NCBI GenBank assembly: GCA_951406725.2
Contig: OX597816.1
Coordinates: 62,620,001-62,684,000 of the forward strand
Direction of reading: 5' to 3'
DNA length: 64,000 bases
From: Octopus vulgaris
Taxonomy: Eukaryota
A program made the position numbers and the translations under genes. Under the pieces are notes generated by a model. That model was not told the origin of the DNA. It was given only the letters and a program-made list of their open reading frames with translations, and did no database searches. Below are positions 6,071 through 39,650 of this stretch, one piece after another. Each line of letters opens with the position of its first letter. Position 1 is the stretch's first letter.

Positions 6071-6073
<3 letters not shown>

Positions 6074-6232
6074 CGCAGGAGTGGCTGTGTGGTAAGTAGC
6101 TTGCTTACCAACCACATGGTTCCGGGTTCAGTCCCACTGCGTGGCATCTTGGGCAAGTGTCTTCTACTATAGCCTTGGGCCAACCAAAGCCTTGTGACGG
6201 AAACTGAAAGAAGCCTGTCGTATATATGTATG

Positions 6233-6271
<39 letters not shown>

Positions 6272-6493
6272 ATGTTTGTGTGTCTGTGTTTCTCCCCTTA
6301 GCATTGCTTGACAACCGATGCTGGTGTGTTTACGTCCCCGTCACTTAGAGGTTCGGCAAAAGAGACCGATAGAATAAGTACTAGGCTTACAAAGAATAAG
6401 TCCTGGGGTCGATTTGGTCGACTAAAGGCGGTGCTCCAGCATGGCCGCAGTCAAATGACTGAAACAAGTAAAAGAGTAAAAGAGTAAAAGAGT
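6071..6493 (+). mobile_element. SINE family A (tRNA head, CCTTGGGCAAG CORE-like motif, internal (TA)n(TG)n, CR1-like tail with (GAGTAAAA)n)
   Basis: Full-length copy; at least 12 homologues in the window; head gtggctgtgtggtaag...gggttcagtccc. Confidence 0.9.
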
Positions 6494-6605
6494 ATATATA
6501 AATTCAGGGTGAATACTTGATAACTGTAAGCACCTGTATAAGCCAGTTAGTGGTGTAGGTGATAGGGTATATTTATCAAAAGAAAAGCAGGATGCAAAGG
6601 ATTTA

Positions 6606-6692
6606 GCGGTACATATGTTTCTGGCTTTATTGGACAGTTTATATCAATGCATAATTGATGTAGCATGTATGTCAATAGCCTTCTTCAGCCGC
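6606..6692 (-). ncRNA. Type I hammerhead ribozyme (left arm of palindrome)
   Basis: gcgg CTGAAGA a ggctattg...caataaagcc a GAAA catatg TA ccgc on the minus strand. Confidence 0.75.
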
Positions 6693-6754
6693 GCACAATT
6701 ACCACACCAAAGACATGTATTACATTATATATGTCTTTGGTGTGGTAATTGTGC

Positions 6755-6841
6755 GCGGCTGAAGAAGGCTATTGACATACATGCTACATAAATTATGCAT
6801 TGATATAAACTGTCCAATAAAGCCAGAAACATATGTACCGC
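6755..6841 (+). ncRNA. Type I hammerhead ribozyme (right arm of palindrome)
   Basis: gcgg(6755-58) CTGAAGA(6759-65), long stem II, GAAA(6826-29) catatg TA ccgc(6838-41). Stem II is closed by an A-A mismatch. Confidence 0.75.
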
Positions 6842-6868
6842 TAAATCCTTTGCATCGCGTTTTTCTTT

Positions 6869-6906
<38 letters not shown>

Positions 6907-6919
6907 TATACACATATAT

Positions 6920-7335
6920 AGGTGCACGCGTGGCTAAGGCGTAAGAGGTTTGCTTCCCAACCGTTTGGTTCTGCGCTCAGTCCCACTGCATGGCATCTTG
7001 GGTAACAGTAATTTACAATAGTGGGCTCGGGCCGACCAAAGCCTTCTTAATGGATTTGGTAGAAGGAAACTGAGAGAAGCACGTCGTGTGTATGTGTGTG
7101 TGTGTGATTCAATGTGGGTGAGAGACAGTGCGTGCATGTCTCTGTGTGTGTCTATTTACCCTCCACGGGTGATAGCTAATTTACGTCCTAATAACCTAGC
7201 GGTTCGGCATAATGGACCGATAGAATAAGTACCAATCTTAAAAACACCCAGTACTGTTGTCGATTCATTCGACTAAAAATTTATCATGGCTTTGCTACTT
7301 TAGCATTACTGTCGTCTGATGACTGACTGAAATAA
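6920..7335 (+). mobile_element. SINE family A, diverged
   Basis: Colinear similarity to 6071-6493. Confidence 0.75.
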
Positions 7336-18460: not shown

Positions 18461-19732
18461 TCAGGTCATTCCATAAGTTCTGTCCGATTTTAACTTTTTT
18501 TAAAGTGAATGCAATTTAATAGAATTTTAGAATGTTTAATGAAATTTAAAATTATTGTTATCAATTTGTGTATATTTGAACTAATTAAATGTTATTTTAC
18601 AGAATAATAGAATTAAAATTTCTTTGATTAAAACCCTTTCTAACATGGAAGTATCCAAAGAGCATTTAATGCACATAATGCTTTATGAGTACAAAAGAGG
18701 AAACGCTACAGCCGAAGCGACTCGAAACATACTCTCAGTTAATGAAAGAACTTACAGAAGATGGTTTGAAAAATTCAGAAGTGGAGATTTCAGCCTTGGT
18801 AATGAAGATCGAACGGGACGTCCAGTTGAGTTTGATGATAAACTCCTTGGGGCATTACTTGAAGAAAATCCTGTATTATCACTTGAAGAATTGGCAATAA
18901 AGCTTAGTTCAAACCATACAACTGTTCATCGTCATCTTCAACAACAGAGAAAGGTTCCTAAACTTGGAAAATGGGTGCCTCATGAATTTTTCCAAAAGCA
19001 ACCGCAAATCCCGAGTTGACATACACTCTTCTTTCCCTCCTCGCGAACACATTTCACCCTTTTTGGATAGACTTGTGACGCGTGACGAAAAATGGATCTT
19101 CTAGCAAAATGTTAAATGTCGTAAACAGTTGCTTGGTAAAAGAGAAAAGCTCAACCACAACCGAGAAGGGAACTTCGTGGGAAAAAGGTTCTTCTCTCTA
19201 TCTAGTGGGATTGCAAAGGCGTCATTCATTTTGAATTGTTACCACCTAATGCAACAATCAATGCTTAAGTCTACTGTCTGCAATTAGAGCATTTGAACCA
19301 AGCTTTGAAGAAAAAAAAGCCACGCTTTAGTGAATCGAAAAGGAGTAATGTTTCATCGGGACAATGCGCGACCCCGTACTTCAAAGATCACATCATAGAA
19401 GATCGAAGAGCTTGGTTGAGAAAAAAATTCTTCATCCACCTTATTCTTCTGACCTTGCTCCCTCAGACTATCATATGTTTTGTAGTTTACAGAATCATTT
19501 GGGGGACATAACTTTCGCAAGCCTGGAGGAGATCGAAACTGACATTTCAGAGTTCTTCGCTTTGAAACCAAAAGAGTTTTACATTGATGGGATTAAAAAG
19601 CTTGTAAATAGATGGAAGGAAGTCATAGATAATCAGGGAAAGTGCATTGATAATTAAATTTCAATTAAATATAACATTTGATCACTTGTTTTCTTTATTC
19701 AAAATTCGGACAGAACTTATGGGATGACCTGG
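18461..19732 (+). mobile_element. Full-length mariner (DD34D) transposon, inactivated
   Basis: TIRs tcaggtcattccataagttctgtccga (from 18461) and tcggacagaacttatgggatgacctgg (to 19732); TA at the left flank; about 1.27 kb. Confidence 0.95.
18645..19657 (+). pseudogene. Mariner transposase pseudogene
   Basis: Motifs RRWFEKFRSGDFSL, GRP, WVPHE, VTRDEKW, HRDNARP and HPPYSSDLAPSDY are spread over several frames with stops. Confidence 0.95.
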
Positions 19733-20233
19733 TGTATAGGTATTGTTTTCCATTGTTTCTCTCGAAAAAGAAAGATGATCATTTGAGGAAAGGAACGAGA
19801 GAGGGTAAAGGAGGAAGAGGGAGAGAGAGAGAGAGAGGGACAGTAAAAAAACGAGTTGCATCAAATATATTAAGATAAAATTTACTTGGAAATAGATGCG
19901 TGGCGTTCAATCAAATAATGATATAAATAATACATATGTGTGTGGTTGTGTGTGTATGCATATATAGACACACATATGTACATACACATATATGTATATA
20001 GGTATGCATTTCCAATGTTTCTCTCGTTCTTTACGTAGCCAACATTATTTCGTATTTCATGTCATATTGCTTACGTTTTGTGACGTCCTGTACCCGTATT
20101 AGCATACCTATTATATACATATATATGTATGTAGATATGTGTGTATATATGCATATATATAAAATTTATATTATTATTTGTTTGAACACCACGCATCCAT
20201 TTCCAAGTAAGATTTATCTGTAAGATTTATCTG

Positions 20234-24777: not shown

Positions 24778-25345
24778 TTTACTCTTTTACTCTTTTACTT
24801 GTTTCAGTCATTTGACTGCGGCCATGCCGGAGCACCGCCTTTAGTCGAGCAAATCGACCCCAGGACTTATTCTTTGTAAGCCTAGTACTTATTCTATCGG
24901 TCTCATTTGCCGAACTGCTAAGTTACGGGGACGTAAACACACCAGCATCAGTTGTCAAGCGATGCTGGGGTGACAAACACAGACACACAAACACATACAC
25001 ACACAGACATATATATATAAATATATACATATATACGACAGGTTTCTTTCAGTTTCCATGTCCCAAATCCACTCAAACGGCTTTGGTCAGCTCGAGGCTA
25101 TAGTAGAAGACACTTGCCCAAGGTGCCACGCAGTGGGAATGAACCCGGTGCTTGACAACCGATCCTGGTGTGTTTACGTCCCCGTAACGTTGCGGTTCGC
25201 CAAAAGAAACCGATAGAATAAGTACTGGGCTTTCAAAGAATAAGTCCTGGGGTCGATTTTGCTCGACTAAAGGTGGTGCTCCAGCATGGCAGCAGTCAAA
25301 TGACTGAAACAAGTAAAAGAGTAAAAGAGTAAAAGAGTAAAGAGT
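24778..25345. mobile_element. Two family A SINEs fused in inverted orientation
   Basis: Minus-strand copy 24778-25146 is joined directly to a plus-strand 3' half 25149-25345. Confidence 0.88.
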
Positions 25346-26492: not shown

Positions 26493-26600
26493 ATACTAGC
26501 TACGGCGGTAGATATTCTAAAATTAGAACGATACAGAGAAGATTAGCATAGCCCCTACGCAAGGATGACACGCAAATTCGTGAAGCATTCCATATTTTTT
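26493..26600 (+). pseudogene. U6: U6 snRNA full-length copy, probably a pseudogene
   Basis: ctaaaattagaacgatACAGAGAagattAGCatagcccctacgcaaggatgacacgcaaattcgtgaagcattccatattttt is colinear with metazoan U6. Several G>A changes, including in the internal stem-loop, and a damaged 5' stem. Confidence 0.93.
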
Positions 26601-26604
26601 CATA

Positions 26605-27020
26605 GGCGTAAGAGTGGCTGTGTGGCAAGTAGCTTGCTTACGAACCTCATGGTTCCGGGTACAGTCCCACTGCGTGGCACCTTGGGCAAGTGTCTTCTAC
26701 TATAGCCTCGGGCCGACCAAACCCTTGTGAGTGGATTTGGTAGACGGAAACTGAGAAAAAGCCGTCGTATATATGTATATGTATATATATGTGTGTGTGC
26801 GTGTGTATGTTTGTTCCCCCCCCCCCCAACATCGCTTGACAACCGATGCTGGTCTGTTTACCTCCCCGTAACTTAGCGGTCCGGAAAAAGTGACAGATAG
26901 AATAAGTACTATGCTTACAAAGAATAAGTTCCGGGTCGATTTGGTCGACTAAAGGCGGTACTCCAGCATGGCCACAGTCAAACGACTGAAACAAATAAAA
27001 GAGTAAAAGTGTAAAAGAGT
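26605..27020 (+). mobile_element. SINE family A, full length, starting 4 nt after the U6 oligo-T
   Basis: Colinear with 6071-6493. Confidence 0.9.
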
Positions 27021-27577
27021 ATATATATTTGTATATTATAAACCCAGGACCAGGGAGGATAATCTCCCACCTTACTGTACAACAAAGAAAAATAGATGTA
27101 ATCGGCTAATGGTTGAAATATAATGAAATATGTACACATTAATGTCATACTGAGTAGATTTATTTTGCTTAAACGGTTTTTTTTTTGCATGTGGTAATTC
27201 GTCCCGTGAAAGTCTGTTTAATGCTTTGAGTGTTAAAAAAAAACACTATATCTCACAAAGAGGTGCAAAAAATCAACTTGCAGGTGAATGAGAATAGTGG
27301 ATATGGATATATCTTTATAATTTCAGTACAGTATTTTCGTGTCACTTTCGAAACTAATTCGAAACTAACCGCATGAGGTAAATACAGATAGCTTAAAATC
27401 TATCTGCCAGTGTGCTACAAGGTAAACTAGATAAAATTTCGTGTTATAAGCAGCTCTAATAATGTAAACGCTATAAATTTCTCATAATCAATGTGCATAT
27501 CAGCAGATAGGTCTCTATGCTAACTGTATAAATATCAGACCAACGATTTGAATTCGTTCCAAATGTAACACTAGTGT

Positions 27578-29867: not shown

Positions 29868-30477
29868 CACTACAATATAAGGCTGTCATTTTTGCTTCTC
29901 ATTCGGACTCCCTGATATTTTCGCATGATTGTACCTTAAATCCCTCCACAAAACTGGATTACGAACTATAAGGACATACACAAATTTTGTAAGTTCAAGA
30001 CTTTTTCATCAGATCTCCAAAAAAATCGAACTTATCTGCGATTCTTGTTAATTTCAATAACAATCTGTTATTCTTCTACACGACATGACAGTCACTATGT
30101 TTTTACTCAGACTTTCCTCTACATGATGTGGCAGTCACTTTGCCTCTTACTCGGATTTTCAGAAATTTTGCATGACTGTATCCGAAAATTTCTTCATACA
30201 ACTTGATCAAATATCCAATATGAGCTATATGTAGACATGCATAAATTCTATAGGTTTAAAACCTTTCATCAGATCTCCATGAATCGAACTCTCTTCAATG
30301 CAGTTAATCCTACAACCTCTTTTATATCTACCCCTTTTGATGTTTGGGAATTCTCTGATATTTTTTCGCCTGACGAGTACGAGCCATCTGTATTCACTGC
30401 ATTTTTTGTAGCTTATTAAAGATGTCCTAGTACGAAACGATCGTACCGAGATTTTAATCCATTCTTGTTGCTTTTTT

Positions 30478-39239: not shown

Positions 39240-39650
39240 GATTTCAAATTTTGGCACAAGGCCAGCAGTTTCGTAATGGGGAAACGTCGATTGCATTGGC
39301 CTAAGTATTCAACTGGCATCTATTTTATCGATTCCGAAAGGATGAAAGGCAACGTTGAGACGGACGAAATGTCGCTAAGCATTTAGCCCGGCACGGTAAC
39401 CAACCTGACAGTTGGCCACCTCGTTTTAGGCAAGTCTTTGATTTCATATTTTGGAACTAGGGCAGCAATTTTTGAGGAGGGGACAAGTCGATTGCATCGA
39501 CTCCAGTTCTCAACTGATAATTAATTTATCGATTCCGAAAAGATGGAAAGCAAATTTGGACTCACAAAAATTTGAACTCAGTACGTAAAAAGGGAATAAA
39601 TATCGCTAAGCATTTTGCCCGGTGAGTTAACAACTCTGCCAGTTTTCCGC
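39240..39650 (-). mobile_element. Two diverged family B SINEs in tandem
   Basis: ttatcgattccgaaaggatgaaaggc-like motif occurs twice. Confidence 0.7.

Follow-up and report, generated by a model that had tools for sequence, protein, structure and literature searches.

A palindrome with two opposed hammerhead motifs in the octopus genome, very probably left by a single Penelope-like insertion

The palindrome at the locus

The window, a stretch of 64,000 nucleotides from Octopus vulgaris analysed as a whole, is AT-rich, microsatellite-dense animal DNA. Two arms of 153 nt each, 6568-6720 and 6727-6879, form an inverted repeat; they are 96% complementary, enclose a loop of 6 nt and, within a core of 147 nt, differ at five positions (6730, 6790, 6857, 6858 and 6860). 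The palindrome described in an earlier note on this DNA was thus confirmed, but of the extent given for it (6574..6873) only the right end stood: on the left, a tail of 74 nt had been missed. Since the left arm alone bears this tail, which is typical of the family described below, the start is placed near 6500, and the insertion, at about 6500-6873, is larger than had been stated. The features are as follows.

6073..6492, plus strand: dispersed repeat flanking the insertion, outside the element (15 BLAST rows in the window, counting the repeat itself)
6500..6729, minus strand: left arm, a pLTR copy that is 5' truncated and has the long 3' end with the tail (BLAST against locus L017)
6500..6573, minus strand: tail of 74 nt, left arm only (BLAST comparison with element copies)
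6606..6692, minus strand: mirror-image hammerhead motif, predicted cut 6610/6609 (fold)
6721..6730, no strand: inversion junction, where the two 5'-truncated ends share about 3 nt of microhomology, ATA (gap -3)
6727..6873, plus strand: right arm, a 5'-truncated pLTR copy whose short 3' end (TTTTGATA) adjoins (TA)n
6755..6841, plus strand: type I hammerhead motif, predicted cut 6837/6838 (sequence, fold, family alignment and pair counts)
6874..6900, no strand: (TA)n target microsatellite, right side (sequence)

Relative to C3 of the hammerhead, the left arm spans -42 (6729) to +188 (6500) and matched L017 with 98% in BLAST, and the right arm spans -32 to about +120 (95%). A short TATATA lies on the left at about 6493-6499, and no distinct target-site duplication was discernible between this flank and the (TA)n on the right. 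The flanking dispersed repeat, which we take to be SINE-like, has an older copy on the other side of the insertion (about 6924-7277). Further inverted repeats of 180 to 370 bp are present at 840-1703, 19873-20219, 39485-40543 and 24778-25333, the last being a pair of SINE-like copies. Also present in the window are a LINE reverse transcriptase (RVT_1) at 62296-63998 on the minus strand, whose endonuclease lies beyond the window end, a fragment of a mariner-type HTH at 18585-19016 on the plus strand, and, at 26496-27022, a full-length U6 snRNA copy (101 bits in Rfam, several substitutions) with a SINE-like repeat copy within 7 nt after it, possibly a U6-SINE retro-chimera.

The hammerhead motifs and their predicted activity

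The positions and strands previously given for the two hammerheads match the motifs read from the sequence. In the plus-strand motif, stem I has 4 bp (6755-6758 with 6838-6841), CUGAAGA lies at 6759-6765, GAAA at 6826-6829 and the triplet is GUA. The core (CUGANGA, GAAA and NUH) is intact in both arms. The description of each arm as a full hammerhead calls for qualification: helix III has only 2 bp (AC/GU around AUAU, inside the palindrome ACAUAUGU), stem II is about 60 nt long, and positions 10.1/11.1 are A-A in place of the R10.1-Y11.1 pair that closes stem II. Moreover, Rfam matched no hammerhead in the whole window at gathering score, and none of its 43 hits at E ≤ 10 in 6400-7000 was one. 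Hits to miRNA families below gathering score were discarded; they merely reflect the hairpin.

The motif was found in the pLTR of 82 aligned copies, and the window-type core was its commonest form (46 of 82), with most other copies differing at one site. Across 15 hand-picked representatives, whose sequences are related, stems I and II are kept, and 91% of cells were paired, compared to 23 to 35% in slid controls. Changes on both sides were seen at three pairs, two of them in proximal stem II, whereas helix III is invariant and therefore uninformative on covariation. Positions 10.1/11.1 read A-A in the subfamily to which the window arms belong; the youngest subfamily has A-C there, and 2 of the 15 representatives have G-C. 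A stepwise erosion from G-C via A-C to A-A was considered and dropped, because it is A-C that marks the youngest subfamily, whose arms mostly diverge by 0 to 2%, and A-A is older.

Like the minimal hammerheads of metazoan Penelope-like elements, as described in the portion of PMC4209133 (Cervera and de la Pena 2014) consulted, the motif is of type I and has a short helix I and a palindromic minimal helix III. However, those hammerheads keep G10.1-C11.1 with a bulged base, whereas 13 of the 15 representatives here have A-A or A-C, and stem II is far longer here. The same portion reports that a single minimal hammerhead is inactive and that dimers cleave weakly; a cis dimer between the two hammerheads of the window is impossible, since they lie on different strands. 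The parts of PMC3088659 seen contain nothing on positions 10.1/11.1.

Both ribozymes of the window are predicted to be inactive from the 2-bp helix III, the A-A at 10.1-11.1 and the hairpin, whose computed fold is -255.5 kcal/mol. The share of the monomer ribozyme fold was put, as a rough prediction, at about 1e-6 for one arm and at a negligible value inside the hairpin, and by an equally rough estimate the hairpin would already have reached -82 kcal/mol when synthesis of the core begins. Whichever strand is read, the antisense copy comes before the sense copy, and sequestration of the ribozyme in the hairpin is therefore predicted, as had been proposed. A lone arm is also predicted to cleave poorly, and the hairpin therefore probably switches off little. 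Nor was a pile-up of 5' truncations seen at +79, the cleavage site, in the 25 pieces whose truncation lies downstream of +25.

Other hammerhead-like motifs were seen as well. One with a long stem II, CUGACGA ... GAAAC GAUC GUA and a G-C closing pair, belongs to a different repeat family and occurs at 30370 (plus strand) and 2003 (minus strand); another, at 42501, lies beside an older palindrome of 280 bp (79%; 42062-42335); and a compact candidate lies at 56783. Locus L100, finally, holds a short tandem and inverted array of yet another hammerhead-like repeat.

The parent element

Judged from its sequence, each arm is a 5'-truncated 3' end (pLTR) of a Penelope-like retrotransposon, and the Penelope-like origin that had been suggested is borne out by a link to an ORF with a Hydra-type reverse transcriptase (RT) and a GIY-YIG nuclease. 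In 20 fetched regions of 10 kb and in L061, a locus with the long ORF of a second Hydra-type family, we looked for this linkage; in many, not all, of the fetched loci, arm sequence was found about 2 to 4 kb downstream of the end of the GIY-YIG ORF. The order in L168 is an inverted short-ended copy, pLTR-tail-ORF, 3' UTR and pLTR-tail, with an ORF of 640 + 209 amino acids interrupted by one frameshift and a distance of 4.7 kb from hammerhead to hammerhead. The tail runs on into the 5' UTR and the start of the ORF in L092, L089 and L168. All ORF-bearing copies found were broken or truncated, and the window copy has no ORF. Two of them, L162 (C1:103539000-103545500) and L168 (C1:13052400-13061500), are nevertheless near-intact and very young copies of the sister subfamily, with arms diverged by 0 to 1% and ORF pieces of 627 and 640 amino acids, and the family may thus have been active recently.

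L168, L162 and L164 encode the RT motifs QFDI, MGS, YRDD and FLDV and the nuclease motif VIY..YIG. The single ORF with RT and GIY-YIG, the pLTR layout and the hammerhead in the pLTR together point to an EN+ Penelope-like element. The marks listed for the Hydra clade in the excerpts of PMC8557442 (Craig et al. 2021) at hand (DKT, RW(K/A), CxCX5C, CxxC and CxH, without CCHH) are present as PADKTG, RIRWAA (with the RWK form in the homologue P0003), CNCRCASEC, CQLCCVE (CxxC-E) and NKRSE..CIH (N-CxH); the GIY-YIG domain is C-terminal and a CCHH motif is absent. Thirteen protein homologues were found, from Argonauta and Octopus among others. Since Pfam matched 0 of 3 and again 0 of 3 ORF pieces of the family, and the PDB sequence search with the family protein returned nothing significant, the Hydra-clade assignment is one by motif and not by tree. 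Naiad was dropped as a candidate, because its EN is N-terminal and its motif is DKA, and Neptune was dropped on motif grounds.

In the excerpts of PMC8557442, Hydra-clade elements resemble the present family in the C-terminal GIY-YIG and motif set, in the (TA)n target and in a hammerhead near the 3' end. In agreement with this insertion preference, BLAST placed most 3' ends of 30 loci directly against (TA)n. Many of the hammerheads listed there are also unpaired at 10.1/11.1, although theirs are U-U. The family differs in its unit of about 4.7 kb compared to generally less than 3 kb, a figure that is descriptive and not diagnostic, in its long 3' UTR and asparagine-rich inserts, in a stem II of 50 to 65 nt (theirs about 10 to 25 nt) and in a tail of about 70 to 78 nt (theirs 30 to 40 nt). 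The excerpted supplement lists one octopus Hydra family, Hydra-1_Obim; its hammerhead is different, and the family described here is therefore another one. A literature search on hammerhead, Penelope and octopus found no paper on this octopus family.

The head-to-head layout itself has precedents. Inverted 5'-truncated copies of Penelope-like elements are described in the legend to Fig. 2 of PMC8557442, and the excerpted supplement describes Penelope-13_HM with such a copy and a hammerhead on each strand; opposite-strand hammerhead pairs 100 to 700 bp apart in Schistosoma appear in the part of PMC4209133 seen, and the layout is also found in that of PMC3846280. Head-to-head hammerheads are thus already published for Penelope-like elements, a Hydra-clade one included. 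What the family adds is a hammerhead variant with a long stem II that Rfam misses.

Head-to-head pairs and their possible origin

In the 2.8-Gb assembly, the right arm had 1,266 first-look candidates, 40 of which were scored. A 23-nt motif of the window subfamily matched exactly 317 times and its reversed control not once, which excludes chance, and a pattern for the sister subfamilies matched 2,293 times (control, 0), giving at least 2,600 motif copies for the family. The copies are variably 5' truncated. Two positions occur for the 3' end, near +120 and near +190 counted from C3 of the hammerhead, and (TA)n usually adjoins it. Among the first 100 matches listed for each pattern, pairs with arms within 5.2 kb, counted by eye, were 9 head to head and 1 tail to tail in the window subfamily and 25 and 1 in the sister subfamilies. 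From these we estimate roughly 600 head-to-head pairs genome-wide. One, at C4:114228424, is about as tight as the window pair, and with hundreds of such pairs likely, the window pair is ordinary.

A script identified 59 distinct head-to-head pairs. Fifty-six combined a long with a short 3' end, one had two long ends and two were unclassified (p = 4e-16 against 50:50). After L092 had been moved to the exceptions, because its long piece continues into the ORF, 55 of 57 classifiable pairs had one end of each kind; the two exceptions are L019, with two long ends, and L092, with short outer ends. The loci had been chosen by similarity or motif and not by tail, and the unpaired copies in 60 pattern loci comprised 17 short and 15 long ends.

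Junctions and arm lengths vary from pair to pair, and this bears on another reading: a small, palindromic, hammerhead-bearing and multi-copy sequence could be taken for a non-autonomous element, either a retrozyme or a MITE with terminal inverted repeats. Fixed termini were not found in the 59 pairs, the arms correspond to the 3' end of an element that carries an ORF, and short tandem arrays of monomers were not seen in the fetched loci; this reading is largely refuted, and we consider it highly improbable. An assembly or library artefact, that is, a fold-back chimera, is even harder to believe. Logan contigs contained only short pieces of the family and the SINE, and none crossed the junction, as an artefact would have it; but the arms differ at five positions and each has private changes relative to the nearest copy, L005, the ends are the two natural ends of the family with the tail on one arm, as in the other pairs, and the flanks differ. 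The private changes and natural ends make an artefact unlikely, and the earlier argument from the arm mismatches therefore holds.

The hairpin of about 150 bp predicted from either strand could also suggest an element selected by the host, as a source of siRNA, an ADAR substrate or a ribozyme switch. Long hairpin dsRNA is a generic substrate of ADAR and Dicer. However, the arms have drifted at 5 of 147 positions, about as the age of the subfamily predicts (3.0% between the window arms, 4.5% to other copies), and equivalent pairs are estimated in hundreds. A scan of 70 of the 106 candidate ORFs in 84 kb, made up of the window with 10 kb to either side, revealed transposon-type domains only and no coding exon of the host, although short exons would escape it. 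Among the sequencing runs on record as RNA, none was listed as containing the stretch, and no listed run contained half of its sequence words. We thus find no support for any particular involvement of Dicer or ADAR and regard a selected regulatory hairpin as very unlikely. The locus itself is of little importance, but hundreds of near-perfect retroelement hairpins in one genome might supply dsRNA in bulk, and this in animals known for heavy A-to-I editing.

Of the 35 pairs whose arms overlap sufficiently, 32 had arms nearer to each other than to the subfamily median (1.5 versus 4.1%), and both window arms have a GCTACAT variant that was found elsewhere only in L005 among the 82 aligned copies. 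Shared rare variants and mutual closeness argue for one source per pair. They would also be expected if the second arm had arisen by fold-back or self-priming, from the first cDNA or antisense RNA of the same element instead of from the second target strand; the short overlaps at the junctions agree with this, and the explanation preferred for head-to-head junctions in the portion of PMC3846280 consulted is self-priming on an antisense template. But a simple fold-back requires nested arms, and among 20 tight pairs the arm with the greater 5' reach was the short one in 10 and the long one in 8, the two being equal in 2. Since the 5' reach is mixed, neither arm is a simple copy of the other, and in some pairs, such as L123 (3-120 and 124-196) and L126, the arms do not overlap at all. 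We therefore consider fold-back unlikely. The one-tail rule, the shared variants and the non-nested arms together fit priming from both cut strands with two fixed RT starts.

The locus is thus very probably one insertion of a Penelope-like element with Hydra motifs, in which twin priming likely placed two 5'-truncated, hammerhead-bearing 3' ends head to head within a TA repeat, and which is likely inert. The steps are read from genomic footprints. The GIY-YIG nuclease of the element would cleave the two strands of the (TA)n target, and each 3'-OH would prime cDNA synthesis on RNA that stems from a single source copy, one from a distal start at the tail end (+188) and the other from a proximal start (+120). 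Both cDNAs would stop 30 to 40 nt past the hammerhead and be joined via the 3-nt microhomology. The template would have been uncut or circular RNA, given that the cleavage site is bridged in each arm. Each arm would later have gained two or three private substitutions and, if transcribed, the locus would give a hairpin RNA of about 150 bp, with neither ribozyme folded.

For Poseidon PAc of Anolis, the sections of PMC11167929 (Frangieh et al. 2024) consulted report cutting and extension of both target strands, two RT start sites with the tail between them, and a dispensable hammerhead cleavage. The present family is alike in the two fixed 3' ends bounding the tail, the AT-rich target and the read-through of the hammerhead site, but it belongs to a different clade, and the PAc ORF begins inside the hammerhead, whereas here some 75 nt separate the tail from the ORF start. 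A strict rule of one tail per pair is absent from those sections; no difference in start site was found between the strands of PAc, and a strand-independent start leaves the tail asymmetry unexplained. We hold it an even question whether insertion is obligately asymmetric, one RNP priming one strand distally and the other proximally on uncut RNA from one source so that exactly one tail results, with the octopod hammerhead (stem II of 50 to 65 nt, no 10.1-11.1 pair) being perhaps protein-assisted or a structural RNA and not an autonomous ribozyme. The family puts numbers on a tail asymmetry so far described only qualitatively in papers and thereby yields a testable prediction for the steps of Penelope-like insertion, and with its many motif copies, its tail and its young near-intact copies, the octopod Hydra family is a direct test bed for it. 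At a separate locus, two arms 2.6 kb apart (L101:3793 and L101:6723) have in common a change by which helix III is broken; either their source transposed although its ribozyme was dead, or the arms were converted.
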